The notes below the pieces were generated by a model, which was not told the DNA's origin, ran no database searches, and saw only the letters and a list, made by a program, of their open reading frames with translations. From Bacteroidia bacterium (GTDB lineage Bacteria > Bacteroidota > Bacteroidia > NS11-12g > UBA9320), in the NCBI GenBank assembly GCA_965216465.1, contig CBDCFW010000006.1, positions 326,440-390,439 of the forward strand: a DNA stretch of 64,000 bases. The letters are read 5' to 3'. The position numbers and the translations under genes were made by a program. Shown one piece after another: positions 2,793 through 42,506 of the stretch (position 1 is the first letter of the stretch; each line of letters begins with the position of its first letter).

Positions 2793-3173
2793 CCGGACTC
2801 CTATAATGTATATATAGCTGGAGGGAAATCCTTGACCAAAACCCCCTCAAAAACCCTAGGATATGGGTAGGGGTCTCTTCTCGTTCCTCTCATTTCAATT
2901 TTACCCAAACTCAAATATTATTCCTTTGCCAGTCTGACTGATAGTATGAGGTGGTGTCTTCTGCAATCCATGTCACCAGCACAAGCAACCAGAATTCCTC
3001 AAATTTCATCAACAACTTCATACTTCAAATTGTGTTGATCAGCATATGCTGTCAATATTTGAGAAAGCTCCTTTAGGTTTAACATTTATAAGCTGAATGT
3101 CACAAAGTTAGGTGTTATCCTTTATGACCAAAATCCGACTTCATTATTGAAACATCGGGCTACATTTGATTCA

Positions 3174-4115
3174 ATGAAAATCCTTTTCTCGACAGCTCTT
3201 CTTTTTCTAGGACTCACCACTCTAGCTCAATCACCAAAAGGCTACTCTATCATTTTTGAAAATACGGTAAATACCGGGTATCTTGAGAATAATAATTTAT
3301 CGAGCATGCTTAACGGTTACGACAATCTACCAAACTACTTCAATAATTTCCCAAGCCTCGATGCACAAATAACAGAGACTAAAGAATTCGATAGCACTAC
3401 ATCATTCTTCAATAGACCTTATCACATTGCTGGCGGAGATAAAATCTACTTTAGAAATACCACCATCGGAATTCAAAAAGACATTCTTCGTTCAAACGGC
3501 ACAGACATTAGCCACAGTTTTGGAATAAACATTGGTTTGGCAGATTTTAACTTGGGCACAATCCAAAGCTATAGTAGCACGAACTACTTGGGCAAAGATT
3601 CAACACCTGAAGATGGCGTGTATCACATACAAGAATCAAGTCGTCGTTCGATATCAGCTTACAAAAAAGTAAGACGAGTAGGGTTATACTACGAAAACAG
3701 CATCAGACTAAAACCGGCTAAATGGTTCAACCTTTCTATTTCACTGAGACACTTTGTTGATCTAAAATATAAAGATCAACTGCTTACACGATATTCAGAA
3801 CGATTGGCCGACACGTTCTTTACCTATGAGAAATACGATGATTATTCAATCTACTGGATGGACTGCATTGTTCTTGGGCCAAGACTAAATCTTTATGACA
3901 AGGAAGAACCTCGTTCAATTCATGATGTTTCCGAGCGAGATGTTCAACTGAACTATAGAAATTCCATTCTGTTTAGACCTGAATTTTTATTCGGAAAGCA
4001 AAAGAAGGTTTCATTGTATTTCAACGTTGGATTCTCTCCACTTCAGCTTCAAGGGGATGATTTTGTCACTAACTCAAACTGGACGTATGGATACGGATTG
4101 AGGTATCGACTCTAA
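3174..4115 (+). CDS. Secreted hypothetical protein with a signal peptide, possibly an outer-membrane beta-barrel.
   Basis: ATG at 3174 gives MKILFSTALLFLGLTTLAQS. The track ORF begins at an upstream TTG. The protein is rich in Y/N/S/T. Confidence 0.55.
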   Translation: MKILFSTALLFLGLTTLAQSPKGYSIIFENTVNTGYLENNNLSSMLNGYDNLPNYFNNFPSLDAQITETKEFDSTTSFFNRPYHIAGGDKIYFRNTTIGIQKDILRSNGTDISHSFGINIGLADFNLGTIQSYSSTNYLGKDSTPEDGVYHIQESSRRSISAYKKVRRVGLYYENSIRLKPAKWFNLSISLRHFVDLKYKDQLLTRYSERLADTFFTYEKYDDYSIYWMDCIVLGPRLNLYDKEEPRSIHDVSERDVQLNYRNSILFRPEFLFGKQKKVSLYFNVGFSPLQLQGDDFVTNSNWTYGYGLRYRL

Positions 4116-4757
4116 CTATTTTCGAGCTATAAGATAATCGGCGAAGCCATACCAATCCCAGTACACGCCGCCTTTTACATAGCCTAATTGAATCTTTTGA
4201 ACCACAATCTTGATGGGCATAAGAAGAATATTTATCAATCTTCTGTTTTTGCCCGATTGCAACACTTTCATCCCACCTTTATTGAAAATCCCAGCGATTT
4301 CCTCAATGCTATAGATGCGAACATGGGTATCATCGTCGTAGAAGTTCAAGGTGCCTTTTTTCGATGGGAAATCCTTGCTCGCTTCACATGGAAACTCTAC
4401 ATAAAATACCCCGCCTTCTTTGAGCTTTGGCATTAAGCCTTTTACCACATCATCACCATTGTGTAAATGCTCAATGATGTGACTCATAACTATAATGTCG
4501 TAATGGTTATCTGGTATTGCATCAAACTTCAACTCAGTTAAATCCAATTGAATGAACTCATCCATATTGGCCAAGTCTTCTGCATCATTGTCATAATTTT
4601 GATCGCGATCTACTCCTGTATAGTGACAGAGTGGAAAGTGCTTTTTGGTTATCGTAGCCGAGTGACTTCCAGAACCAATATCCAGCACCTTACACGACAA
4701 AGTAGGTGAATATTTCTTTAGGATGTTTATCCGAAAAGGAGGTATAAAATTGGCCAT
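4116..4757 (-). CDS. Class I SAM-dependent methyltransferase.
   Basis: Motif I is VLDIGSGSH and an acidic post-I residue is present. The gene abuts the ridA-like gene. Confidence 0.7.
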   Translation of the reverse strand: MANFIPPFRINILKKYSPTLSCKVLDIGSGSHSATITKKHFPLCHYTGVDRDQNYDNDAEDLANMDEFIQLDLTELKFDAIPDNHYDIIVMSHIIEHLHNGDDVVKGLMPKLKEGGVFYVEFPCEASKDFPSKKGTLNFYDDDTHVRIYSIEEIAGIFNKGGMKVLQSGKNRRLINILLMPIKIVVQKIQLGYVKGGVYWDWYGFADYLIARK

Positions 4758-5138
4758 TTACTTAACTGCAATAACGCTAATTTCTACATTAACTCGCTTA
4801 GGCAAGGTTTTTACCGCAACTGCCTCTCTAGCAGGAGGATTGTCAATAAAATACTGAGCATAAACCTCATTTATACTGGTATAGTAATCCATGTCGCTCA
4901 TAAAAATGCTGGCCTTTACAACGTTTGAAAAATCCATTTCAGCTGCTTTTAAAACAGCTTCAATATTCTTCATTACTTGAATTGTTTCGCTGATTATACC
5001 ATCATCCACCAATTCTCCAGTTGCAGGATCAATGGCTATCTGACCGCTACAATACAAGGTATCGTTTACAAGAACCGCTTGACTGTAAGGGCCTATGGCA
5101 GCAGGAGCATCTGGTGTACTTATTATTTTTTTACTCAT
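4758..5138 (-). CDS. ridA: RidA/YjgF family reactive-intermediate deaminase.
   Basis: The ORF is 126 aa. PDAPAAIGPYSQAV...SGQIAIDPATGE...AREAVAVKTLP is characteristic of YjgF/TdcF. Confidence 0.85.
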   Translation of the reverse strand: MSKKIISTPDAPAAIGPYSQAVLVNDTLYCSGQIAIDPATGELVDDGIISETIQVMKNIEAVLKAAEMDFSNVVKASIFMSDMDYYTSINEVYAQYFIDNPPAREAVAVKTLPKRVNVEISVIAVK

Positions 5139-5191
5139 TTTTATGCTTTAGTATTTGGTTTCAAGTTTAGCCTTTTAACTTTGCTCACTTC

Positions 5192-5848
5192 ATGAATATT
5201 GCAGCTAAAGGCCATCCCAATCAAATTCAAGAACTCGCTGAATTGCTTTCAGACCATTCTATTTTGGAGTTCAAAATTAATGAAATTGACAGCTATGATG
5301 TCATCTTTGATTTGGATTTTGATGAAAACCCAGAACAATTCACAAATTACCTCGAAGTTGACGAATGTTTAGTCGTAGCTGGATGCATCAGACTTCAACT
5401 TGAAGAAATTGTAGCAGAAGCTGGAATCAAACCAAACTGTGCTTTTATTGGCATGAATACCCTGCCAACTTTTATCAACCGAAGCTTGGTAGAATGCTGT
5501 GCCTTAAACGAAGAAGATCAAGAAATGGCAAAAGCTATTTTCACCTCTCTTGGACTTGAAAGCAGATTTGTGGAAAGCAGAGTAGGGTTGGTAACTCCTC
5601 GTATCGTTTGTATGATTATCAATGAAGCCTATTTTACGGTACAAGAAGGTACAGCTAGCCGTGAAGATATCGATCTTGGTATGAAACTCGGAACCGCGTA
5701 TCCAAAGGGACCATTTGAATGGTGTGATGAAATTGGAATCGACAATGTTTATGAGACTTTAGAAGCACTATACCAAGACACTAAAGATGAACGCTACAAA
5801 ATCTGCCCGCTGCTTAAAAAAGAGTACCTGCAGAGCTTTGTCTCTTAA
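5192..5848 (+). CDS. 3-hydroxyacyl-CoA dehydrogenase C-terminal-domain protein, without a recognisable N-terminal NAD-binding Rossmann domain.
   Basis: REDIDLGMKLGTAYPKGPFEWCDEIGID matches the 3HCDH C-terminal dimerisation domain. No GxGxxG is present. Confidence 0.55.
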   Translation: MNIAAKGHPNQIQELAELLSDHSILEFKINEIDSYDVIFDLDFDENPEQFTNYLEVDECLVVAGCIRLQLEEIVAEAGIKPNCAFIGMNTLPTFINRSLVECCALNEEDQEMAKAIFTSLGLESRFVESRVGLVTPRIVCMIINEAYFTVQEGTASREDIDLGMKLGTAYPKGPFEWCDEIGIDNVYETLEALYQDTKDERYKICPLLKKEYLQSFVS

Positions 5849-5854
5849 TTCGCA

Positions 5855-7435
5855 TCATACGCCTAATACTTTAAACTCAACTCTTCTATTCAGCAATTGA
5901 CCTTGTTTGGTTGAATTATCGGCTATAGGATAATCAGGACCAAAGCCTTTAATCTCAATTCGTGATTCGTCAATTCCATTTAAGGTTAAAAAGCTCCTTA
6001 CAGCCTTTGCCCTCCGTAAACTCAAATCCATATTGTGATCATAATCTCCAACGTCGCTAGTATGACCTGATAGTTCAATTCTCATGGCATTATTGCCTAA
6101 TAGAGCTTCGAGCAATTCTCCCAGTGTTTGAAAAGATTCAGGCAGTAACTCTGCTTCATCGTTCTCAAAATGTATATCATCAAGTATCAATTGGTCACCA
6201 ACCTTGAGGTCAGTAAACAATCCTCCTTCTTTAGCAGGTTCCTCATCTTCTGACACCCCCTCAAAGTTGCACCCACAATCAGAACTTCCCGCAGGTACCA
6301 AACTCACATCGTCCATAAAATAATAACTCTCTTGTGCCTCACCATCTACACTAATCAAGTTAAGATCATGATGATTTTGAAAGCTCCCGATAACCAAATA
6401 ACGTTCTCCACCTATTGCCTTGTACGAGCATTGTACCTTCATCCAACGTGTCTTGTAATTTAGTACTTGATCATTTAAACCCTTGCTCGGTTCTATAGTT
6501 AACAGTTCATCTGTGTTGATGCTCACTTTGTCCTGCGACAGTTTAAACCCAAACGCATTGGTTGCATATCTACTTGCAGGAGAAAGTTTTAGAAATGCTG
6601 AAAAGCAATAAACAGAATCTTTCTCTAAGGGCTGCTTCAATTCGTTCTGGAGATATTCAATGTGCTTTTGCATGCTAAATACTCGAAAACCAACAAACGA
6701 AGAACCCGAATGTGAAACTCGAGGTGCTATATAAAAGTCTGGAGATTCAGACGCAATTTCCCAGCCCGGAACCTGGTTCGTAAACGACATAATCGTAAAT
6801 GGCGCTTTAGGATGTATTTCAAACTCTGGGTTGCTTATATAATTATAAGGATGTTTGGTATTTGTGTTTTGATCATTTACCAACTCACTATTTCCAACGC
6901 TATCTTCAAAACTCCGATATGCGCTATCGGTCATTGTTCCATTTGGATTTTGATATGTCGAACTCCATTGTGACATCAAGTCCATTGGAATATGATTCTT
7001 TAACTTCTTTTTGTACTCCCATACTGTAAAGCTCTCAAAATCTTTGAACACGTGAATAATCCTGCCTCCATTATCAATAATTCCATTCTTAAATCCCAAT
7101 TGATTGGTAATTGTGCCTTTATGATAATTGCGAATTAGGATAGTATCACCCGTCTCCGGTTCGTAATAAATCTCTAAGCCATGTTTACGGGTGAGTTTGG
7201 CTGACTTATTAGCCTTGTAGTTTACTTCAATCAAAGTATTTCCAAGCGAATCAATGGCCAACCAACGACCATTTTTCAAATGTGCCGTAGTTTTCTGCCC
7301 AGTGACTACCGATCGGTATTTGATGCTTACATTTTCACCAACTGTTTCGGCAAGTAGACTTTTATACCGAATGGTATCTTGCCCGAAGGCAGCAACATTA
7401 ATAAGTACAAGAAGAAGAGCTCCAGCCAGTTTCAT
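5855..7435 (-). CDS. OmpA-family protein: a large unknown N-terminal domain plus a C-terminal OmpA/peptidoglycan-binding domain.
   Basis: The C-terminus LSGHTSDVGDYDHNMDLSLRRAKAV...NRRVEF is an OmpA_C domain. The signal peptide MKLAGALLLVLINVAAFGQ begins at ATG 7435. The track ORF start at 7579 overlaps bamA and is probably an over-extension. Confidence 0.75.
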   Translation of the reverse strand: MKLAGALLLVLINVAAFGQDTIRYKSLLAETVGENVSIKYRSVVTGQKTTAHLKNGRWLAIDSLGNTLIEVNYKANKSAKLTRKHGLEIYYEPETGDTILIRNYHKGTITNQLGFKNGIIDNGGRIIHVFKDFESFTVWEYKKKLKNHIPMDLMSQWSSTYQNPNGTMTDSAYRSFEDSVGNSELVNDQNTNTKHPYNYISNPEFEIHPKAPFTIMSFTNQVPGWEIASESPDFYIAPRVSHSGSSFVGFRVFSMQKHIEYLQNELKQPLEKDSVYCFSAFLKLSPASRYATNAFGFKLSQDKVSINTDELLTIEPSKGLNDQVLNYKTRWMKVQCSYKAIGGERYLVIGSFQNHHDLNLISVDGEAQESYYFMDDVSLVPAGSSDCGCNFEGVSEDEEPAKEGGLFTDLKVGDQLILDDIHFENDEAELLPESFQTLGELLEALLGNNAMRIELSGHTSDVGDYDHNMDLSLRRAKAVRSFLTLNGIDESRIEIKGFGPDYPIADNSTKQGQLLNRRVEFKVLGV

Positions 7436-32293: not shown

Positions 32294-32584
32294 ATTAAGA
32301 AAACAATTGTCATAAACGGAACAAAGATTCATGATGAAGCCTCTTTTTATGATGAAATTGAACGCGTACTGACACAAAATCTGAAGTTTACCACTGCTCA
32401 TAACTTGAATGCATTCAATGATTTATTGTGGGGAGGACATGGAGTACATGAATACGAAGAAGCCATAGTATTAATCTGGAAAGACTTCGAACATTCTCGA
32501 TCAAAGTTGGAAAAAGACTTTGTTGAAGCTGCGGTGCAAATTATTGAATCACATAAGCATATCTCATTTCGAACCGTTGACTAG
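32294..32584 (+). CDS. Barstar-like protein (barnase-inhibitor / immunity family). It has no canonical start codon and may be a pseudogene or start at ATT/ATA.
   Basis: The frame is open from 32282 to TAG 32582-84. The translation ...KKTIVINGTKIHDEASFYDEIERVL...LNAFNDLLWGGHGVHEYEEAIVLIWKDFEHSRSKLEKDF... parallels barstar (KKAVINGEQI...[27 protein letters not shown]). There is no in-frame ATG, GTG or TTG near the 5' end. Confidence 0.55.
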   Translation: MKKTIVINGTKIHDEASFYDEIERVLTQNLKFTTAHNLNAFNDLLWGGHGVHEYEEAIVLIWKDFEHSRSKLEKDFVEAAVQIIESHKHISFRTVD

Positions 32585-32673
32585 AGGTATAAATATTGAG
32601 AGATCGCCACAGTAATTCGAAATAAAATCTTGGCGCAATTTTACTTAATGTTATTTTTACACAAAATAAGAGA

Positions 32674-33357
32674 ATGACCGACAGGCAAAGAATAGATCTC
32701 ACTGTGGATGCCGTAGTTTTTGGCTACGATCCAAGTGATGGTATATCCGTATTACTTATCAAGCGAAAATATGAGCCTTTTAAAGGAGAATGGGCTATTC
32801 CAGGTGGATTTGTTGCGAACGATGAATCGTTAGAACTAGCGGTTGAACGTGAGCTAAAAGAAGAAACCGGAATTCAAGTCAACTATTTGGAACAGCTTTA
32901 CACCTTTGGCGAACCTTTCCGCGACCCAAGGAAAAGAGTTGTGACTGTAGCTTACTATGGATTGGTAAAGTCATCCGCTTTTACGATACATGCCTCATCC
33001 GACGCTGAAGATGCTCAATGGTTCAATATTGCTAGCCTTCCTAAACTAGCATTTGATCACGTAGAGATTCTAAACATGGCTTTTGCTCGACTAAGAAGTA
33101 AAATATCTTACGAACCGATTGGCTTTGAATTATTGGACGAAAAGTTTCCGTTCTCTGAATTGCACAAGCTCTACGAAACCCTATACGGCACTGCAATTGA
33201 CCGAAGAAACTTCAAGAAGAAATTTCTAAAACTCGGCATACTAAAAGAGCATAGCGAAAAGAATTCTGTTGGCCGAGGTAGACCAGGAATTATCTACAGC
33301 TTTGATCAAAAACAATATTTTAAACTTAAAAAGCAGGGAATCGTTTTTGCTATATAG
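32674..33357 (+). CDS. NUDIX hydrolase-fold protein with a C-terminal winged-helix domain. Probably an NrtR-family ADP-ribose-responsive regulator.
   Basis: The Nudix box is GEWAIPGGFVANDESLELAVERELKEETGI. The C-terminus ...ELHKLYETLYGTAIDRRNFKKKFLKLGILKE...GRGRPGIIYSFD resembles the NrtR wHTH domain. Confidence 0.6.
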   Translation: MTDRQRIDLTVDAVVFGYDPSDGISVLLIKRKYEPFKGEWAIPGGFVANDESLELAVERELKEETGIQVNYLEQLYTFGEPFRDPRKRVVTVAYYGLVKSSAFTIHASSDAEDAQWFNIASLPKLAFDHVEILNMAFARLRSKISYEPIGFELLDEKFPFSELHKLYETLYGTAIDRRNFKKKFLKLGILKEHSEKNSVGRGRPGIIYSFDQKQYFKLKKQGIVFAI

Positions 33358-33397
33358 CAAATTTTTCTTCCTGTAAATCAGGACACTACATTCTTTT

Positions 33398-33414
33398 TGT
33401 GTATTTTTTACACA
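33398..33414 (+). promoter_or_regulatory. Palindromic operator candidate 1: TGTGTA-N5-TACACA.
   Basis: The sequence is TGTGTAtttttTACACAtat. A near-identical copy lies 53 bp downstream. Confidence 0.5.
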
Positions 33415-33424
33415 TATTATTTGT

Positions 33425-33452
33425 TTGTTCAAATCGTGTGCTTTTATATTTG
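33425..33452 (+). promoter_or_regulatory. Candidate Bacteroidetes promoter for the 33495 operon (-33 TTG, -7 TATATTTG).
   Basis: TTG sits at 33425-27 and TATATTTG at 33445-52 with a 17-nt spacer. The box is about 43 nt upstream of the ATG and overlaps operator copy 2. Confidence 0.4.
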
Positions 33453-33467
33453 TGTACACTTTACACA
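33451..33467 (+). promoter_or_regulatory. Palindromic operator candidate 2: TGTGTA-N5-TACACA.
   Basis: The sequence is TGTGTAcacttTACACAtat. It overlaps the -7 box. Confidence 0.5.
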
Positions 33468-33494
33468 TATTAAGTGTAATAAAAAATAAAAGTC

Positions 33495-34514
33495 ATGTTA
33501 GGATTTAATTATATCAAATTCGATTCAATGGATTACGTAATCCAATATCGAAACGGAAAAGTCAGAAGAAAAGGAAATGGACTGTCTTTTTTCTATTTCA
33601 CTGCAAACAGTAGTTTAGTCAGCATTCCAGTTAAGAATATTGACCTCCCATTCATATTCGAAGAAATCACTTCCGATTTTCAAGACGTAACCGTACAGGG
33701 TCAACTTACCTTCAAAATCACCGATCCAGACCTTTTAAGTACACAAATGGATTTCACCGTTGACCATTACCGCAGACGCGTAACTGATGACATGGAAAAG
33801 CTTAGACAGCGATTGGTGAATGAAGCCCAAGCCTCAATTGCGGGTTTCGTTAACTCAATTAAAGTGACCGAGGTGTTAAGTAAACAGGCCGAAATTGGGC
33901 TAGAGCTGTCTAAAGAACTTACATCAAATCAACAAATTAAAGATCTTGGAATTAGTATTCTTGGCGTAAACATTATTCGTGTTAAAGCCACACCTGAAAC
34001 TGCTCGTGCTTTAGAGGCTAAAACACGAGAAGCTATTCAACAAGAGGCAGACGAAGCCATCTATGGTCGTAGAAACTTTGCTGTTGAGCAAGAGCGCAAG
34101 ATCAAAGAGAGTGAGCTAAACACCGAAATAGCGGTTGAAGAGAAGAACAAACAAATCGTTGAAAAGAAGATGCAAACCGATCTTGTTAAACATGAAAATG
34201 ATCGCAAGCTCAAAGAGATGGAAGTCGAGGCTGCAATTTCTGTAGAGGAAAAGAATAAAGATTTGGTTGACATGAAGACAGCAAACGACAAAAAAGAAGC
34301 AGATGCCCAAGCCTACCTTCTTGATGCAGTGATGAAGGTCTACAAAAATGTGGACTGGAAGATTCTTTCTGCCTTGCAAGGCCAAGATAACAGTGCTGCA
34401 TCGAATATCGCTTTGGCATTTCGTGAGTTGGCTGCCAACTCAGATAAAATCGGTACATTGAATATTACCCCTGATCTATTGGATAGTTTATTGATTAAAA
34501 CTGAGGAGAAATGA
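33495..34514 (+). CDS. SPFH (band 7 / flotillin-like) domain protein without a TM anchor, with a C-terminal coiled-coil region.
   Basis: FIFEEITSDFQDVTVQGQLTFKITDPDLL and ...LRQRLVNEAQASIAGFVNSIKVTEVLSKQAEIGLELSKEL...ISILGVNIIRVKATPE follow the SPFH-domain pattern. Charged heptad repeats EEKNKQIVEKKMQTD.../EEKNKDLVDMK follow. No N-terminal hydrophobic helix is present. Confidence 0.6.
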   Translation: MLGFNYIKFDSMDYVIQYRNGKVRRKGNGLSFFYFTANSSLVSIPVKNIDLPFIFEEITSDFQDVTVQGQLTFKITDPDLLSTQMDFTVDHYRRRVTDDMEKLRQRLVNEAQASIAGFVNSIKVTEVLSKQAEIGLELSKELTSNQQIKDLGISILGVNIIRVKATPETARALEAKTREAIQQEADEAIYGRRNFAVEQERKIKESELNTEIAVEEKNKQIVEKKMQTDLVKHENDRKLKEMEVEAAISVEEKNKDLVDMKTANDKKEADAQAYLLDAVMKVYKNVDWKILSALQGQDNSAASNIALAFRELAANSDKIGTLNITPDLLDSLLIKTEEK

Positions 34515-35434
34515 AATTCGACAAGGCAATCATAGTGAGATCAAAAACACGATTGGAACAGCTCATCGAGCGTTTTAATACGAAGGCTCAGGCCGAATTC
34601 TACATCGAACGTTCAGGTGGTGAATTCCGCATCTATGAGCAAGAACACTTGAAATTCTATGCTGTTCTTAACCAACTCATCAAATTGGTTTCGGTCTTTG
34701 ACTCCTATAAAATTCTGGATCGAAAGTTTGTTCACTCCTATGTTTTTGCCGACAACGATTTAATCATTGTATTAGGTCAGGATGGCTTGGTGGCCAATAC
34801 GGCCAAGTATGTTCTTGGAAGACCAATAGTTGCCATCAACCCTGACCCTAATACCTACGATGGGATTCTTCTCCCATATACTATCGACCGGTTTGAAAAA
34901 TCATTAAACCGCATTAAAAAAGGGAAGCATCAAACTAAAAAAATTACGATGGCCAAGGCCGAATTTAGCGATGGACAAAGCTTATTGGCATTCAATGACT
35001 TTTTCATTGGTCCTAGAACTCACGTTTCTGCCCGATATAGATTAAAAGTAAATGGCAGAGAAGAATTGCAAAGTTCGAGTGGAATACTGATTTCAACGGG
35101 AGCGGGAAGTACTGGATGGATGAGTTCCGTATTCAACATGGTTAACGGAATAAACCGCTATCACTCCCATTCGTTTGATGAAGTTGAAAATAGAATTCAA
35201 TGGGAAACCAATAAGCTTTTGTTTGCCGTTCGAGAGCCCTTTTTAAGCAAGACTTCTTCCATTTCACTCTGTTTTGGAGAAATCAAATCAGGCGAGCATT
35301 TAGAAATTGAAAGTCAAATGCCCGAAAATGGCATTGTATTTAGTGACGGCATTGAAGCCGATGCCATACGATTTACAACAGGAACGTCGGTAAAAATTGG
35401 TGTGGCACAAGAGACCGCAAATTTAGTAACCTAA
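34511..35434 (+). CDS. NAD kinase-fold (ATP-NAD kinase / DAGK_cat superfamily) protein with a variant GQDG motif.
   Basis: NDLIIVLGQDGLVANTAKYVLGRPIVAINPDP matches the NadK ADLAVVVGGDGSMLGAARTL..IGIN region. SGILISTGAGSTGWMSS matches [21 protein letters not shown]. The start overlaps the upstream stop as ATGA. Confidence 0.6.
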   Translation: MKFDKAIIVRSKTRLEQLIERFNTKAQAEFYIERSGGEFRIYEQEHLKFYAVLNQLIKLVSVFDSYKILDRKFVHSYVFADNDLIIVLGQDGLVANTAKYVLGRPIVAINPDPNTYDGILLPYTIDRFEKSLNRIKKGKHQTKKITMAKAEFSDGQSLLAFNDFFIGPRTHVSARYRLKVNGREELQSSSGILISTGAGSTGWMSSVFNMVNGINRYHSHSFDEVENRIQWETNKLLFAVREPFLSKTSSISLCFGEIKSGEHLEIESQMPENGIVFSDGIEADAIRFTTGTSVKIGVAQETANLVT

Positions 35435-35448
35435 AAAATTGGCTTGTC

Positions 35449-35814
35449 ATGCTTAAAAAACTAATTAACTTTTTCGATCTCGACAACCAAAAGTATAACG
35501 CTAAGGTTTTTAAAAAAATACCGCTTATTGAAAAAGATCTATTGAAAGTAGTGAGCACAATATGCACAGAAGACTTCTGGATTCATCGATTTGGTGGAAT
35601 TGAGGTTTCACCAGAAATTTTGAGTTTCTGCATATGCGTCCAAACCGACCGCATGAAGCTTCAGTTGAAAAACAATGATAAACTATGGACCGCCTGCAGA
35701 CAGCTTCTGGTACTACATGACTACCCTTCATATTCCCGAGATAAAGTTTGGTTTGACGTGGAATCGCAAGAAACTGTTGATCGGGAAAACGATGGGGTGT
35801 GGTTTCCAAGATGA
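35449..35814 (+). CDS. Hypothetical protein, third gene of the SPFH/NADK-like operon.
   Basis: The ORF is 121 aa and starts 14 bp after the upstream stop. I recognise no motif. Confidence 0.45.
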   Translation: MLKKLINFFDLDNQKYNAKVFKKIPLIEKDLLKVVSTICTEDFWIHRFGGIEVSPEILSFCICVQTDRMKLQLKNNDKLWTACRQLLVLHDYPSYSRDKVWFDVESQETVDRENDGVWFPR

Positions 35815-35829
35815 TTAATTATTAGAACC

Positions 35830-36456
35830 TCATATTTTGCCCTTCCTTTTCTCCATTTCGTTAGCAATTTCTAAACCAGCTTCGTCCTGCTCGTTGAGTT
35901 TGTCTATTATATTTTGATAGCTTTCTTCGTCTCGGTCTTGGCTTAGTTTAAAAACCGTATCCACCTTGGTAATCTCGAATTCAAAACCTGCTATTAGCTC
36001 CAGTGCCCCTTGCTTGAATCCAGCGGGTAAATTGTTATATACCGTTGGAGATTCTGGGTTGTTCTCTTCAAAGTGCAAAGACAGAGATTGCAAAATTTCT
36101 TGTAATTCATCCTTCCCAACAAATCTTAGTTTACCATGGAGGTGAACGCTCATGTAGTTCCAGGTTGATGGAGTATTGGGATTTTTATACCACGTTCCGC
36201 TCACATAGGTATGCTTACCTGTGAACACAGCAAGAACATTTGGGTTGTTCAAGAAAGCTCTATAATGATCGGTATCTTTCATAATATGTCCACGCATCAC
36301 CTTTTTACCATTTATCATTTCAATGAACAATGGAATCTGCGTGGCAATTGGTTTATTCTGAGCATCACATCCAGTTACAAACGCAAACGGATATTTGGCT
36401 ATGAGCTCATCGATTAAGATTTCATCATTTTCTTTATGATAGGGAAGATTATACAT
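35830..36456 (-). CDS. PaiB-family FMN-binding negative transcriptional regulator.
   Basis: The ORF is 208 aa with the PaiB-like N-terminus MYNLPYHKENDEILIDELIAKYPFAFV and a C-terminal helical tail. Confidence 0.55.
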   Translation of the reverse strand: MYNLPYHKENDEILIDELIAKYPFAFVTGCDAQNKPIATQIPLFIEMINGKKVMRGHIMKDTDHYRAFLNNPNVLAVFTGKHTYVSGTWYKNPNTPSTWNYMSVHLHGKLRFVGKDELQEILQSLSLHFEENNPESPTVYNNLPAGFKQGALELIAGFEFEITKVDTVFKLSQDRDEESYQNIIDKLNEQDEAGLEIANEMEKRKGKI

Positions 36457-36613: not shown

Positions 36614-37342
36614 ATGGAAGATTCAGAGAAATACGACAACAACCCACAAATTAGAAAGTACAAAGAACCAGATAAAAAGGTACTTGTTCCTGCATCTGGA
36701 CAATCATCTATTAATCAAATTAGTGATCACATTGAAAAATATATCGGACACATACACAGTGTATTTCATGAAATTGTGTCATATCATGTGCACATCGATG
36801 TGTATTGGGTAAAGCCTACCCGACAACGACCATTTCACACTTTAATCACATCAGGAATGAGTGATAAACCGATGAACACTTCAGATGGGTTGGAAGGAAG
36901 TCAATATGCAGAACTGAGCATTTGTTTGCCTGAACATTGGAAACTGTCAGATGATGACATAAAAGACGATCTAAATTACTGGCCAATCGGATGGCTAAAA
37001 TATTTAGCTCGATTTCCCCACGAAAATGACACTTGTTTGGGCTATGGGTATACAATACCCAACGGAAACCCCGCAGCACCCTTGACTGAGGGAACTCAAC
37101 TAAACACTATGTTGTTGCTACCTACTATTGTATTCAATGATGAGTTTCATGAGTTAGTACTTCCTAATAAAACCATTCAATTTTACTCGCTAATCCCTCT
37201 GTATGCAGAAGAGATTGAATTAAAACTTAGTCAAGGGGTAGAAGCTCTTTTTGATGGTTTCGACAAGTTTGGTGTTTCTGATGTTTTGCAACTCAATAGA
37301 CCGAATACAGTGAAGAGAAGGAAGCGGTTTGGGTTGTTTTAG
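36614..37342 (+). CDS. SUFU-like domain protein (immunity-protein family in polymorphic toxin systems).
   Basis: HVHIDVYWVKPTRQRPFHTLITSGMSDKPM...YAELSICLPEHWKLSDDD...YWPIGWLKYLARFPHENDTCLGYGYTIPNG...LLLPT...FYSLIPLYAEEIELK follows the bacterial SUFU pattern. Confidence 0.6.
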   Translation: MEDSEKYDNNPQIRKYKEPDKKVLVPASGQSSINQISDHIEKYIGHIHSVFHEIVSYHVHIDVYWVKPTRQRPFHTLITSGMSDKPMNTSDGLEGSQYAELSICLPEHWKLSDDDIKDDLNYWPIGWLKYLARFPHENDTCLGYGYTIPNGNPAAPLTEGTQLNTMLLLPTIVFNDEFHELVLPNKTIQFYSLIPLYAEEIELKLSQGVEALFDGFDKFGVSDVLQLNRPNTVKRRKRFGLF

Positions 37343-38006: not shown

Positions 38007-39488
38007 CTATTTGATGTTCACCACATCAACAAAGTACATGTCAACCTCTCCTTTTCCTTTTGCCTGTATCTTGCCGCGATGCTCAAATTTCAAGTCTTCA
38101 TCATCTTTTAATAATTCATAGGTGTAGTGAGAAATATTAATCCTTCCAACTTCTCCATGGGACTCCATTCTTGAAGCCGTGTTTACAGCATCTCCCCATA
38201 TGTCGTACTGAAATTTCTTAACCCCAACAATTCCAGCAACAACTGGACCCGTATTAATGCCAATTCTCATCTGAAATGGAGTTTTGCCTAGCCTTTTTCG
38301 TTTATCATGATCGTTCATTATAAACTGCTTCATTTCAAAGGCCGCAAGTATGGTATTTTTCACAGAATTGGCATCCGGAACAGGAATTCCCCCAGCAGCC
38401 ATATAAGAATCTCCTATGGTCTTAATTTTCTCAATATTGTATTTGTCACAAATAGCATCAAATGCCTTGAAGCAATAATTAATATCAGCTACCAATTCTT
38501 CTGGACTTAGCTCCTGAGACATCCGTGTAAATTCCTTAAAATCAGTAAACAAAATTGATACAGAGTCAAATTTTCTTGCGACTGCCTCCCCATTTTCCTT
38601 TAACTCATCTGCAATTTCTGAAGGCAAAATATTAAGCAACAACTTGTCCGATTTGTGCTTCTCTTGCTCGAGTGTTGATTTACTCTCATCCAAAAGTTCA
38701 TAGATTTTTACATTGTCTAAAGCAACGGCCAAATACGAAACCAAGGTTCTTAGAAAGTCTAAATGATAACTGTTATAAACTTCTGCAATCTTACTTTCAA
38801 CAGAAAGAGCACCCAATTTACTATCGTGAAGTGAAAAAGGGATACACATGATTGCTGCAGGATTGTAGGACCCGTCTAAGGAAGCAATGGGGTCAAATAC
38901 ATATTGACTGTAGTCCTCAACTGCGTTGTTTAAAAAAGCTTCTTTTCCGTTATCAAGACACCATTCTAGAATAGAGCTATTCTCTTTAGAATGAGGAGGT
39001 CTATCAAGCTTTCCGTCTTTATTGACCCTTATGGTATGTGCAGTAGAATCGGTATAATACAGCAAGTTAAGATTCTCAACTTCCATACTTGAAGAAACAT
39101 ACGTAAAGAGGATTTGAAGGATGTGCTCTACATCTAAACTTCCCGTAATCTCTTTACCTATTTCGGTAAGCAAGGTAATTTGTGAAAGTGAACTTTCAAC
39201 GCCTTTAAGTTTCTGATCTAAATTTTTCTTCTCTTTTGTTTCAGAATGTAAACTTAGATTATCCTTCTTGGTTTTAGTATACCGACTTGCTAGCTTATTA
39301 AAATCAGAGGCTATTTGACCCAATTCACCGTTACTTTCAAACGTCACTTTTACAAGTTCCTCTTCTTTCACCGCAAAACTAGTTTTGCTGTTAAGCTCCT
39401 TGATTTTTCGTCTGAGCATCAAGTATCTACTAGTTATAATAACAGCAAACAACAACGCAACTGAAGCAACGATTAGGGGTAAACTCAT
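38007..39488 (-). CDS. Membrane-anchored class III adenylate/guanylate cyclase with a GAF-like middle domain.
   Basis: It has an N-terminal TM helix. The C-terminal CHD region reads VSILFTDFKEFTRMSQ...IGDSYMAAGGIP...MRIGINTGPVVAGIVG..FQYDIWGDAVNTASRMES. Confidence 0.75.
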   Translation of the reverse strand: MSLPLIVASVALLFAVIITSRYLMLRRKIKELNSKTSFAVKEEELVKVTFESNGELGQIASDFNKLASRYTKTKKDNLSLHSETKEKKNLDQKLKGVESSLSQITLLTEIGKEITGSLDVEHILQILFTYVSSSMEVENLNLLYYTDSTAHTIRVNKDGKLDRPPHSKENSSILEWCLDNGKEAFLNNAVEDYSQYVFDPIASLDGSYNPAAIMCIPFSLHDSKLGALSVESKIAEVYNSYHLDFLRTLVSYLAVALDNVKIYELLDESKSTLEQEKHKSDKLLLNILPSEIADELKENGEAVARKFDSVSILFTDFKEFTRMSQELSPEELVADINYCFKAFDAICDKYNIEKIKTIGDSYMAAGGIPVPDANSVKNTILAAFEMKQFIMNDHDKRKRLGKTPFQMRIGINTGPVVAGIVGVKKFQYDIWGDAVNTASRMESHGEVGRINISHYTYELLKDDEDLKFEHRGKIQAKGKGEVDMYFVDVVNIK

Positions 39489-39551: not shown

Positions 39552-42506
39552 TTGAAAATGATTAACCCCTTTCCTGGTCTTCGGCCTTTCGATTCTTCAG
39601 AATCTGAATTGTTTTTTGGGCGAGAAAGGCACATTGGTGAAATCCTAAGAAAACTAGATACCTACCGCTTTGTCTCCATTGTGGGCAACTCAGGAAGCGG
39701 GAAGTCATCGCTGGTTCGAGCAGGCTTACTTCCTTATATAAAAAAGAATCGGAACGATTGGACAATATGCAGCATGAGGCCGGGATCTGATCCCATTGCT
39801 GAATTATACGCAACTTTAACCGAATCTAAAGTTATAGATGATGAAAAAGGACTATCAATCCTGGGAAAGCATGCTCTTGGTTTGGTTCAACTTTTAAGGC
39901 ATTCACTTCAATCTAAAAGTATTCTGATTCTCGTAGACCAGTTTGAGGAACTATTTCGATTTAACGCAAGTAATGACGACGAAGAACAAGAAAATGTAGC
40001 CAGCAAGTTTGTTGATCTTCTTCTAGCTTCAGCAGGCCAAACTGATGTAAACATCTATATTGTATTAACGATTCGATCTGATTTTCTTGGAGACTGCGAA
40101 CAATTTCAAGGCCTCCCAGAAGCGATTAATGATGGTCAGTTCTTAGTGCCAAGAATGAATCGCGAAGAAATGAGAAGTAGTTTGATCAATCCCGTGAAAA
40201 TTGCTAAAGGAAAGATCTCGCCGCAATTAGTTCAGAATCTCCTAAATCAAGTCGGAAACAGACCGGACCAACTTCCAGTGCTACAGCATGTTTTAATGCG
40301 TAGTTACAATGTGTGGTTAAACTCAAATGAGCTTGAACAACCATTAGGCATGGAGCACTATGAGGCTACTGGAGGAATGAATGAAGCTCTATCAAGACAT
40401 GTAGATGAAGCGTTTTCGGAGCTAAACAAGAAACAAAAGAAACTGGCCGAAATCATTTTTAAAACGGTTACCGTTAAGGGGTCAGATAATCGGGGTATTA
40501 GAAGACCAACAAGCGTTGCTAATTTGGCAAAGATTGCCTCGTGTTCTGAAACCGATATTATTTCCACAACTGAATTTTTCAGAAAAAGTGACCGTGGATT
40601 TTTAATGCCATCTCAAGACGTTGAACTAGCAAGCTCCAGTATCATTGACATCTCCCACGAAAGTTTGATGAGAAAGTGGATTACGCTAAAAAACTGGGTG
40701 GATGAAGAGGCTCAATCAGCAGAGTTATTTAAGCGAATAAGTGAGAGTGCCCTATTGTATGAAGAGGATAAAGCAGGTTTATGGAGAGACCCTGATTTGC
40801 AAATTGCAAAAGATTGGATGGTTTCAAATCAGCCGAATGAGTACTGGGCAGCACAGTATAATCCACATTTTAAGTCTGCCGTACGGTTTTTAGAAGCCAG
40901 TGACCAACAGAAAAAGTTTTTGCTTGCAGATAAACAACGTAAACGAAAAATTAGAAACATCACCGTAGTTCTCGTATTAATTGCTTTATCTGCCATTAGT
41001 CTGTGGGCTTTTAACGAACGAAACAATGCAGAAAGTAATGCTGCAGAGGCCTTAGAACAAAAGAAACAGGCAGACGAGCAAAGACAGAAAGCTGAGACCA
41101 ACTTCTCTTTAGCTAAAGAACAAGAAGAAATTGCAAATCGAGAGAAGCAGGAGGCTGAAAATCAACGTCAGCAGGCAAACCGAAGCGCTGCTGAAGCTCA
41201 AGCTTTATCAATAGTTGCTCAAAATGAAGCAGCAAAATCAAAACTAGCAGAGAAACAAGCAGAACTTGAGCGAGAAGTAGCCCTACATCAAACTCATATT
41301 TCGGATAGTCTTCGCATACAAGCAGAACTTGCCACAGAACAAGCTCAACAATTAAGACTTCTTGGAGTGTCAAAAAACTTGGCAATTCGTTCTAAAATTA
41401 TGGATGATCGTCAATCCGCCGAACTGAAAACTCTACTGTCGTTACATGCCTTCAAATTAAATCATGAGAACAAAGGAAATGCTTTCGATAAAGACATCTT
41501 TGAGGCTATTCATCAGGCTTATAACGCTACAGAACTTAAGGGCAATCCACCTTTAAGAATTCATGCAGATGAAGTACCATCAATTGCGATAAGTAGCTCA
41601 GGTATGTGGGCTAGTGCAGGGAATGATGGTAAAGTGTACCTAACCAAGAATAATGGAACACCGCAGCTGATTTTAGAAAATGAGCATGTGCTCGACAATG
41701 CCACCTTTTCACCAAACTCAACCCATCTTGTAGTTTCGGATGAACAGCATAGTCTTCATATTTTAAGTCTTGATGCAAGTGATAATGTACAGGATTATGA
41801 AACAGGACAAACCAATAAAATCACCCGATTACTGTGGATCGACCAGTACATTTACAGCTTTTCGATAGACAAGTCTATCGTGGTTTTCGATGCTCAAACA
41901 AATAGCATGAGTAGAAAAATTCAACTTTCTGTAGAACCTCATTCTGCGATTGCCTTATCAGCTGAAACTATTATCATTGGTTCTGCCAATGGAGGCATAT
42001 ATCAGCTTGATCTAAACACTGATCAACTCAGTAAGATTACCAATGTAGCAGGCGGTGCAATTGTTACAGCTGTTGATGTATCTAGCGATAATAATATTGC
42101 ATACGGTACTAGTAAAGGACAATGTGGGATTGTTTCTCCATCAGGCAATCTCTTACGAACATTTAATGGTCATGGGGCTAGAATATCAGCAATACGTTAC
42201 CACCCAACCGATAAACTCATAGCTACAGCTTGTTACGACGGAAAAGTTAGGCTATTTAACACGATAGAAGTCAGCCAGCCAGCCATAGAATTTGATGATC
42301 ACAGCTCATGGGTTTTAGATCTTAATTTTACAGCAGATGGACGATTCCTCATTAGCACAGGTAAAGATAAGAATGTAGTAAAGAACCCAATATCCTTGGC
42401 TCACATGGAACAAAATTTGCGTCAAGCAATTACACGAGATCTTACGATGGATGAATGGAAATTTTTTGCTGGCGAAGGATTGCCTTTTGTTCCTTTGAAA
42501 AAATAA
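39552..42506 (+). CDS. STAND-type P-loop NTPase with an internal TM helix, a coiled coil and a C-terminal WD40-like beta-propeller.
   Basis: The N-terminus PFPGLRPFDSSESELFFGRERH...FVSIVGNSGSGKSSLVRAGLLP is the nSTAND signature. A hydrophobic helix ITVVLVLIALSAISLWAF sits at about 40950-41010. A Q/E/A-rich coiled coil spans about 41020-41350. WD40-like repeats (GHGARISAIRYHPTDKLIATACYDGKVRLFN) run to the end. Confidence 0.7.
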   Translation: MKMINPFPGLRPFDSSESELFFGRERHIGEILRKLDTYRFVSIVGNSGSGKSSLVRAGLLPYIKKNRNDWTICSMRPGSDPIAELYATLTESKVIDDEKGLSILGKHALGLVQLLRHSLQSKSILILVDQFEELFRFNASNDDEEQENVASKFVDLLLASAGQTDVNIYIVLTIRSDFLGDCEQFQGLPEAINDGQFLVPRMNREEMRSSLINPVKIAKGKISPQLVQNLLNQVGNRPDQLPVLQHVLMRSYNVWLNSNELEQPLGMEHYEATGGMNEALSRHVDEAFSELNKKQKKLAEIIFKTVTVKGSDNRGIRRPTSVANLAKIASCSETDIISTTEFFRKSDRGFLMPSQDVELASSSIIDISHESLMRKWITLKNWVDEEAQSAELFKRISESALLYEEDKAGLWRDPDLQIAKDWMVSNQPNEYWAAQYNPHFKSAVRFLEASDQQKKFLLADKQRKRKIRNITVVLVLIALSAISLWAFNERNNAESNAAEALEQKKQADEQRQKAETNFSLAKEQEEIANREKQEAENQRQQANRSAAEAQALSIVAQNEAAKSKLAEKQAELEREVALHQTHISDSLRIQAELATEQAQQLRLLGVSKNLAIRSKIMDDRQSAELKTLLSLHAFKLNHENKGNAFDKDIFEAIHQAYNATELKGNPPLRIHADEVPSIAISSSGMWASAGNDGKVYLTKNNGTPQLILENEHVLDNATFSPNSTHLVVSDEQHSLHILSLDASDNVQDYETGQTNKITRLLWIDQYIYSFSIDKSIVVFDAQTNSMSRKIQLSVEPHSAIALSAETIIIGSANGGIYQLDLNTDQLSKITNVAGGAIVTAVDVSSDNNIAYGTSKGQCGIVSPSGNLLRTFNGHGARISAIRYHPTDKLIATACYDGKVRLFNTIEVSQPAIEFDDHSSWVLDLNFTADGRFLISTGKDKNVVKNPISLAHMEQNLRQAITRDLTMDEWKFFAGEGLPFVPLKK

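Follow-up and report, generated by a model that had tools for sequence, protein, structure and literature searches.

A 64,000-nucleotide stretch of a Bacteroidia bacterium genome (NCBI GenBank assembly GCA_965216465.1, contig CBDCFW010000006.1, positions 326,440 to 390,439 of the forward strand; hereafter the window, whose own numbering is used below) carries a regulator gene, nrtR, followed by two coupled genes that encode an SPFH/Band-7 protein and a protein with the nicotinamide adenine dinucleotide (NAD) kinase fold. The locus is a genuine, coherent module and a Bacteroidota member of the nrtR/nrtX-nrtY kind; it is a new Bacteroidota example of an NrtR regulon that had already been predicted, not an undescribed system. 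The identity of the parts and the regulatory logic of the module are held with high confidence. The best overall explanation of what the module does, which we regard as reasonably probable, is that it provides an auxiliary NAD(H) kinase that would be induced by ADP-ribose and held on an SPFH assembly. The features that an initial annotation had read from the sequence are all present, namely four open reading frames (ORFs), an ATGA stop/start overlap of nrtX and nrtY (34511-34514), a 14-nt gap between nrtY and the ORF that follows, twin palindromes, a -7 box and the protein domains.

The pair nrtX-nrtY was described as a predicted NrtR regulon by Rodionov et al. (2008, Nucleic Acids Research 36:2047; PMC2330246), whose Table 1 lists it for Streptomyces, Kineococcus, Frankia, Proteus mirabilis (as nrtR<#>nrtX-nrtY) and Hahella. 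The main text of that paper names no function or family for nrtX or nrtY. In the P. mirabilis locus examined here (L086), the NrtR gene occupies 3088-3930 on the minus strand, the SPFH gene 3954-4970 and the NadK-like gene 4974-5921, with three sites of the TAGTGTC-N5-GACACTA type between nrtR and the SPFH gene. Because this layout matches nrtR<#>nrtX-nrtY, the SPFH gene is taken to be nrtX and the kinase-like gene nrtY. The initial statement that no described system pairs a soluble SPFH protein with a NadK-like protein under NrtR control thus does not hold. Homologues of nrtXY are also present in Streptomyces, and annotations in Rhizobium etli read 'NUDIX domain-containing protein', 'SPFH domain-containing protein' and 'ATP-NAD kinase PpnK-type protein'. 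SEED/RAST probably labels the SPFH gene 'NrtR-regulated hypothetical OrfX, Band 7 protein domain' and the kinase-like gene 'OrfY, PpnK-type ATP-NAD kinase domain', labels that did not occur in the literature searched. The literature searched contained no work linking SPFH, band 7 or stomatin with NrtR, mentioned 'band 7' and 'NAD kinase' together only in unrelated work, and assigned no function to nrtX-nrtY since 2008.

The SPFH-kinase pair is conserved as a unit, according to the neighbourhood comparison that had been proposed with the initial annotation. A genome scan with the family alignment gave 577 confirmed matches, from which 80 loci were kept and all of their ORFs compared by phmmer. 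These loci come from about ten phyla, including Bacteroidota, Chloroflexota, Acidobacteriota, Elusimicrobiota, Spirochaetota, Nitrospirota, Melainabacteria/Obscuribacterales, Myxococcota and Gammaproteobacteria. An exhaustive search at E <= 1e-30 placed the NrtY family in 229 clusters at 50% identity, and the closest relatives of the window protein are kinases of Crocinitomix-like Flavobacteriales that are 74-79% identical to it. In 81 of the first 82 loci the kinase gene is preceded directly, on the same strand, by the SPFH gene, the exception being cut off by a contig end. This order is also found in all six further loci, which include members only 30-35% identical, and in Proteus, Rhizobium and Streptomyces. 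At most 10 nt separate the two genes in 66 of 86 loci, and in 27 they overlap by 4 nt. The nrtR gene adjoins the pair in approximately 34 of 88 loci and in three orientations: upstream and co-directional in Flavobacteriia and Cytophagia; downstream within the same operon in Acidobacteriota, Obscuribacterales and a Planctomycete-like contig; and divergent in Proteus, Rhizobium and locus L057. No conserved third gene was found when 346 flanking ORFs were clustered and the Pfam families of 133 downstream neighbours were counted, nothing recurring in more than four loci.

The control region of the operon contains two exact copies of TGTGTA-N5-TACACA, O1 and O2, which are 53 bp (approximately five helical turns) apart and lie on the same face of the helix (Table 1). 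The consensus of Bacteroidota promoters is TTTG/TAnnTTTG, and a TAtaTTTG box of this type is present where the initial annotation had placed it, overlapping the second palindrome. O2 begins 44 nt before the A of the nrtX start codon. When the window was shuffled with its dinucleotide composition preserved, none of 100 shuffles yielded an exact match to the palindrome, and the relaxed motif TGYGTA-N5-TACRCA has a background rate of 0.12 per kb over all fetched sequence. Two such sites precede the SPFH gene in 15 loci of the Flavobacteriia/Cytophagia type, spaced by 53-56 bp in 14 of them, with O2 lying 32-48 nt from the ATG in the 14 loci where this distance could be measured. A 'tatattTG' -7 element is fused directly to O2 in most of the related loci. 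In three of the 15 loci the twin operators occur without an adjacent nrtR, which implies control in trans. The degenerate candidate autoregulatory site ahead of the window nrtR has three mismatches and keeps the GT-N7-AC core and the right half-site; at the equivalent position, seven of ten related loci examined have a perfect TGYGTA-N5-TACRCA and an eighth has a site with one mismatch. A scan of the region for sigma-70 promoters and terminators found nothing above shuffled expectation.

NrtR-type operators with the GT-N7-AC core also precede the SPFH gene in at least five lineages, where they stand at the corresponding position, mostly as tandem sites around a promoter of the sigma-70-like type. 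The sequence outside the core differs from lineage to lineage: TAGTGTC-N5-GACACTA in Acidobacteriota, Obscuribacterales and Proteus, AGTGTA-N5-TACACT in Chloroflexota, ACGTA-N5-TACGT in Dysgonomonas, and TTAGT-type palindromes in Saprospiraceae and Rhizobium. All of these variants retain GT-N7-AC, which is the common denominator of NrtR sites (Rodionov et al. 2008, PMC2330246). This phylogenetic footprint, in which both the position and the sequence of the operators are conserved across orthologous loci, makes the predicted NrtR-type control of the nrtXY operon well supported, in agreement with the initial proposal.

The regulator itself has the two domains expected of an NrtR. Its N-terminal Nudix domain matches PF00293 over residues 12-131 (E 1.2e-21), and its C-terminal winged helix matches PF21906 (NrtR_WHD, E 4.8e-20) over profile positions 1-61 of 61; the earlier reading of the gene product as an NrtR-like Nudix and winged helix-turn-helix protein is therefore correct. 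The Nudix box GX5EX7REUXEEXGU is intact at residue 45. In NCBIfam the protein scores 150.9 bits against a cut-off of 400 for NF050029, the equivalog of the ADP-ribose-responsive repressor, and by these profile scores it is an NrtR family member of another orthologue group. Of 33 NrtRs linked to nrtXY, 28 have a complete Nudix box; it is degenerate in those of Proteus, Rhizobium and three others. Since it is complete in most of them, such NrtRs may still hydrolyze ADP-ribose. ADP-ribose relieves repression by characterized NrtRs (PMC2330246), and by this analogy the window protein is probably an ADP-ribose-sensing repressor.

NrtY is an NAD-kinase-fold protein of a non-canonical kind, as had been proposed. 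It has no Pfam match at E <= 0.1, NAD_kinase included, and its best NCBIfam NadK equivalog score is 39.5 bits, far below the cut-off of 260. An AlphaFold2 model built from an alignment containing 27 homologues has a mean predicted local distance difference test (pLDDT) score of 83.6, and all 50 listed Foldseek matches of this model in the PDB are NAD or NADH kinases with a probability of 1.00. Human NADK2 is the top fold match among the matches listed (E 3e-19, template modeling score 0.73-0.75) and is also the best PDB match by sequence (E 6e-7, identity of approximately 20%).

The motifs of the family were compared in an alignment of 27 diverse members that are 30-58% identical. The glycine motif of the window protein is GQDG; G89, D91 and G92 are conserved, whereas position 90 is never glycine in any of the 27, being Q, P or another residue. 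D91 aligns with D161 of NADK2, the catalytic residue according to the D161N mutant (PMC9245612). N162-D163, which constitute the NE/D motif and are NE in some members, are nearly invariant, as are S189/S190 and W203. Four segments can be paired with NADK2: 'PIVAINPDP' with 'PVIGVNTDP', in which Pro replaces Thr/Ser; 'NDFFIG' with 'NEVFIG'; 'SSSGILISTGAGSTGW' (SSSG..TGAGSTGW) with 'SSGLNLCTGTGSKAW'; and 'VREPF' with 'IREPI'. The N-terminal 66 residues do not align with NADK2. In the NADK2/NADK3 type, Ser/Thr and Trp replace Asp-189 and Tyr-202 of Ppnk and a PX-GXN(T/S)DP motif is present (Ohashi 2012, PMC3535332); the corresponding residues vary little or not at all among the 27 aligned members. 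Judged by its Ser/Trp signature and N-x-DP motif, NrtY is of the NADK2/NADK3 type.

The P. mirabilis H63 record of 4.08 Mb carries a member of the nrtY family at 3.26 Mb; at 2.72 Mb it also has a canonical nadK, whose product shares 74% identity with NadK of E. coli. This coexistence and the sub-threshold NadK score indicate that NrtY is a second NAD-kinase paralogue by sequence and not the housekeeping NadK; the check suggested with the initial annotation, whether the middle protein is an ordinary NadK, was thus answered in the negative. The H63 record is evidently a chromosome filed among plasmids. In PLSDB, NZ_OL790811.1 and NZ_OL790812.1 (P. mirabilis, approximately 4.08 Mb) and several E. 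coli records of 4.8-4.9 Mb are listed as plasmids; these records are chromosome-sized and carry the housekeeping nadK. The intact nrtY of H63 lies 0.7 kb from tet(J) (L086 6629-7822), and truncated C-terminal nrtY fragments occur on small plasmids of Actinobacillus, Mannheimia, Psychrobacter, Wohlfahrtiimonas and Proteus vulgaris (H34-H40). The plasmid fragments and the proximity of tet(J) suggest that nrtY has been clipped by a mobile resistance element.

NrtX matches the Band_7/SPFH family PF01145 with E 2e-18 (67.5 bits against a cut-off of 23.6). No membrane segment was found in it, the maximum Kyte-Doolittle mean over 19 residues being 0.98, and the protein starts directly with the SPFH β-strands. 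In the AlphaFold2 model (pLDDT 75.8), the N-terminal β-rich SPFH1/2 domains are followed by one continuous helix of approximately 117 residues (167-283) and by small C-terminal helices. This agrees with the initial description of a cytoplasmic SPFH/flotillin-like protein that has a coiled coil and lacks a transmembrane segment. Foldseek matches of the model are HflK/C, stomatin, erlin, prohibitin, flotillin, QmcA and the vault shoulder, with E values down to 9e-12. The full-length solved SPFH proteins among these form closed rings or cages.

Taken together, these features may be arranged into the following scheme. NrtR dimers would bind O1, just 5' of the -33 element, and O2, over the start of transcription, and thereby bracket the nrtXY promoter; a weak third NrtR site would lie ahead of nrtR itself. 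ADP-ribose, arising from NAD+ cleavage or de-ADP-ribosylation, would bind the Nudix domain and free the repressor, by analogy with the characterized NrtRs, and NrtX and NrtY would then be produced in coupled amounts. NrtY may phosphorylate NAD(H) to NADP(H) with ATP or polyphosphate as the donor. This activity is proposed tentatively, from the retained NADK2-type catalytic signature, and it is possible rather than probable. NrtX could oligomerize into a scaffold that binds, concentrates or gates NrtY, a role suggested by the architecture of all solved SPFH assemblies and by the translational coupling of nrtX and nrtY, and held more tentatively still. The module would then constitute an auxiliary branch of NAD(P) homeostasis that is switched on during NAD breakdown or the turnover of ADP-ribosylation.

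Several points weigh against this scheme. The equation of nrtX with the SPFH gene and of nrtY with the NadK-like gene is inferred from matching the P. mirabilis gene order. Many loci lack an adjacent nrtR, and in several, e.g. L010-L013, no obvious operator was found. As for the effector, some Bacteroidota regulators of the NrtR family sense sugars, AraR responding to arabinose (PMC4666351), and ribose 5-phosphate was put forward speculatively as an effector by Rodionov et al. (2008, PMC2330246). The second Gly of GGDG, which belongs to the phosphate-binding loop, is replaced in every aligned NrtY, so that the use of donor or substrate may differ from that of known NadKs. Finally, the only SPFH-kinase fusion found, P0302, could reflect a genuine fusion, a deletion or an error of assembly. 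This 574-residue protein comes from one Logan contig and lacks the first 12 or so residues of the kinase and its first strand. Because it is a singleton on one contig and that strand is missing, it was treated as a possible artefact; it was rejected as Rosetta-stone proof of an interaction between NrtX and NrtY.

The genes around the pair vary from locus to locus, and most are housekeeping or unrelated genes, the largest neighbor cluster spanning four loci. An anecdotal listing of the loci nevertheless includes an unusual number of NAD- or ADP-ribose-linked functions, which agree with the expected ADP-ribose effector of NrtR. NADAR proteins stand beside the pair in three loci, in one of them 2 bp after nrtY (the coordinates being among L005 6926-7474, L008 6926-7393, L022 4327-4908 and L015), and L008 also has a weak Macro-domain match. 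NADAR and Macro domains process or bind ADP-ribose. Tpt1/KptA occurs in two loci, inositol-monophosphatase-family proteins likewise in two, and an ADP-ribosylglycohydrolase was also seen. The protein of L089 that combines isochorismatase-like, TCAD9 and phosphatase domains, described below, is counted here as well. In Muricauda/Allomuricauda sp. SCSIO 64092 (CP095413.1; L001 6992-9961), a short Argonaute (Piwi) and a SIR2_2 gene lie directly 3' of nrtY on the same strand, and a second Band_7 gene is found beyond them on the opposite strand. The combination of a short Argonaute with SIR2 is a defence pair of the NAD-degrading type. The most frequent same-strand follower of nrtY, found directly 3' of it in four loci of Bacteroidales/Dysgonomonas (L010, L011, L044 and L074), encodes a protein of 713-834 residues with an N-terminal S-adenosylmethionine-dependent methyltransferase domain and a long unannotated C-terminal part.

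Three other explanations were weighed. The first element to be doubted is the substrate of NrtY, which could instead be another nucleotide of NAD breakdown, such as free ADP-ribose, nicotinic acid adenine dinucleotide or a related dinucleotide; or NrtY could be a ligand-binding pseudo-kinase, and NrtX a cage or scaffold for the detoxification or signaling of ADP-ribose. The main argument for this is the alteration of GGDG to G-x-DG throughout the 27 aligned members. The missing Pfam match and far sub-threshold NCBIfam score, the N-terminal residues that do not align with NADK2, an expected inducer that is ADP-ribose itself and neighbors that release or process it all point in the same direction. 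However, NAD or NADH kinases make up all of the top 50 Foldseek matches, the catalytic Asp, the NE/D motif and the NAD-contacting Ser/Trp are conserved across the family, and NADK2, which shares the variant residues, is an active NAD kinase (PMC3535332, PMC9245612). We therefore consider this explanation unlikely, though deserving of consideration. The opposite view of the middle gene, namely that it is an ordinary housekeeping NadK with an SPFH gene as an unrelated neighbor, could appeal to databases that label family members 'NAD kinase' or 'NAD(+)/NADH kinase'. It is effectively refuted: the NadK score and the lack of a Pfam match, the presence of nrtY and canonical nadK on one P. mirabilis replicon, and the linkage to SPFH across phyla, mostly by overlapping or nearly overlapping stop/start codons, all speak against it, and the first two sufficed to rule out a housekeeping identity.

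A role in conflict, either anti-phage or directed against NADase toxins, was also considered. ADP-ribose released by an NADase attack or by abortive-infection NADases would de-repress the operon, and NrtY would turn the NAD pool into NADP, protecting or depleting it. The patchy distribution over about ten phyla, the occurrence of the pair in 69 records of a plasmid collection, the Argonaute and SIR2 genes downstream in one locus and a TCAD9 conflict-type protein in another, the NADAR and Macro neighbors, and the barstar-like, SUFU-like and nSTAND NTPase genes near the window locus are in keeping with such a role. On the other hand, none of the 5027 models of PADLOC-DB 2.0 matches the SPFH protein or the kinase, and NrtR matches only the generic Nudix candidate model PDC-S07; tblastn found no homologue in 50,697 phage records; no defence partner recurs among the clustered flanking ORFs; and a metabolite repressor of the NrtR type is typical of NAD metabolism regulons. 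The candidacy of the locus as a known defence system was rejected on the PADLOC and phage results, and a conflict role in general appears improbable. Of the 'NAD(P)/ADP-ribose-linked stress or conflict module' that was originally proposed, the NAD/ADP-ribose theme thus stands, supported by scattered neighbors, and the conflict part has no direct support. A bolder version of the auxiliary kinase explanation can be stated, and it too is improbable. NrtX would be a soluble, vault-like SPFH nanocage that encloses or activates an NADK2-type kinase only upon an ADP-ribose signal of NAD destruction, forming a bacterial compartment that rescues or re-routes pyridine nucleotides, for example by sheltering NAD as NADP from NADases of the SIR2, TIR or toxin type; the family might also be the prokaryotic lineage behind mitochondrial NADK2.

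Table 1 Features of the nrtR/nrtX-nrtY locus in the window.
Feature	Positions	Strand	Basis or remark
Degenerate candidate NrtR autoregulatory site AATGTTATTTTTACACA	32647-32663	.	10 nt upstream of nrtR start codon
nrtR, Nudix-related repressor, 227 aa	32674-33357	+	ORF list, Pfam PF00293 and PF21906
Operator O1, TGTGTATTTTTTACACA	33398-33414	.	exact TGTGTA-N5-TACACA; upstream of -33 element
-33-like TTTG elements, two, overlapping	33420-33427	+	21 and 17 nt 5' of -7 box; read from sequence
-7 box TATATTTG (TAnnTTTG type)	33445-33452	+	2-nt overlap with O2; read from sequence
Operator O2, TGTGTACACTTTACACA	33451-33467	.	exact TGTGTA-N5-TACACA; spans expected transcription start
nrtX, SPFH/Band-7 protein, 339 aa	33495-34514	+	ORF list, PF01145
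nrtY, NADK2-type protein with NAD-kinase fold, 307 aa	34511-35434	+	ORF list, fold comparison
Orphan ORF, 121 aa	35449-35814	+	ORF list, no family match

The ORF of 121 codons that follows nrtY had been counted as the third gene of the operon, and as a transcriptional statement this is probably correct, given the short gap and the lack of a terminator between the two. As a conserved unit the three genes do not hold together. Searches with Pfam, NCBIfam and PADLOC profiles gave no family match for the encoded protein, no homologue occurs in the 88 other distinct loci, including relatives whose kinases are 74-77% identical, the protein forms a cluster of its own at 90% clustering, and no relative turned up in a metagenome scan. 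On these grounds it was ruled out as a third component of the module, and we conclude from the sequence comparisons that it is a lineage-specific passenger. The closest relatives have a 769-residue protein at that position in one case and nothing on that strand in the other. The 769-residue protein (L089 4933-7242, from the closest relative of the window locus, kinase 77% identical) begins 9 bp after nrtY, in the place of the orphan, and combines isochorismatase-like (nicotinamidase-fold), TCAD9 and dual-specificity phosphatase domains; its phosphatase domain also matches 'PTP-NADK', a phosphatase fused to an NAD+ kinase.

Beyond the orphan, the window encodes a PaiB-like FMN_bind_2 protein (35830-36456, minus strand), a SUFU-family protein (36614-37342, plus strand), a GAF-adenylate/guanylate cyclase (38007-39488, minus strand) and an nSTAND1 NTPase of 984 residues with WD40 repeats (39552-42506, plus strand). 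ORFs without a family match are also found at 28.8-32.3 kb and 37.4-38 kb. Just 5' of nrtR, a small ORF (32405-32584, plus strand) resembles the C-terminal half of barstar (PF01337, E 0.0062, below threshold); an in-frame extension is possible to approximately 32320, and that upstream sequence looks barstar-like as well, which points to a possible immunity-type gene whose start is mis-set or non-canonical. The region around the module looks like a variable patch rich in accessory genes.

The module brings together an SPFH scaffold that has no anchor and a second NAD-kinase paralogue that is closer to the animal mitochondrial enzyme than to bacterial NadK. Its function would reveal a bacterial response to ADP-ribose and NAD breakdown that goes beyond the re-synthesis of NAD, and the module offers a tractable model for the regulation of a soluble enzyme by an SPFH assembly. 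It might also shed light on where NADK2 came from. The window contributes a clean example from Bacteroidota, in which the arrangement of operators and promoter is well defined.

Among known systems, the SPFH proteins that form rings or cages (HflK/C-FtsH, QmcA-YbbJ, stomatin, prohibitin, erlin and flotillin) share with NrtX the SPFH1/2 domains, the long coiled-coil helix and the C-terminal cap region. NrtX is also tied genetically to one partner, as HflK/C is to FtsH or QmcA to the NfeD protein YbbJ. In contrast to HflK/C, stomatin, prohibitin and QmcA, it lacks a transmembrane segment or hairpin; neither an NfeD gene nor a protease was seen at its locus, and its partner is a soluble nucleotide kinase. 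The eukaryotic vault offers a loose analogy to NrtX-NrtY, being a soluble cage that houses the NAD-using enzyme PARP4 and whose shoulder is the SPFH domain of the major vault protein (MVP). Vault chains are among the fold matches of NrtX (E approximately 5e-8), the match being limited to the SPFH and helix region. The SPFH domain of MVP binds NAD+ and ADP at the monomer interface, and the vault shoulder adjoins PARP4 (PMC12280208). MVP is far larger than NrtX, and the comparison is no more than an analogy.

With NADK2 and plant NADK3, NrtY shares the catalytic Asp, the NE/D motif, the N(T/S/P)DP motif, and Ser and Trp in the place of Asp and Tyr. It differs from NADK2 in a distinct helical N-terminal elaboration (residues ~12-60) and in its length (307 residues compared with approximately 390 in the solved chains), and the two proteins align only in segments; an EMKA dimerization insert has been described for NADK2 (PMC9245612). 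NADK2 also lacks the genetic setting of NrtY, whose gene is paired with an SPFH gene and placed under a transcriptional repressor. With the classical NadK/PpnK enzymes (PF01513, PF20143), NrtY has in common the two-domain fold and the general layout of the active site, whereas it falls below all hidden Markov model cut-offs and carries NADK2-type substitutions in the glycine-rich motif.

The closest known counterpart of the locus is the regulon of Rodionov et al. (2008), in which an NrtR gene likewise stands beside a two-gene operon with NrtR-type palindromes of the GT-N7-AC core. There the pair is listed only for Actinobacteria and Gammaproteobacteria, whereas the present locus belongs to Bacteroidota; the Bacteroidetes NrtRs of that study control xylose or arabinose genes, and the Cytophaga NrtR controls prs-nadV. 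The present locus is further distinguished by a co-directional nrtR upstream of the pair, the motif TGYGTA-N5-TACRCA, and two operators, 53 bp apart, that bracket a -33/-7 promoter.

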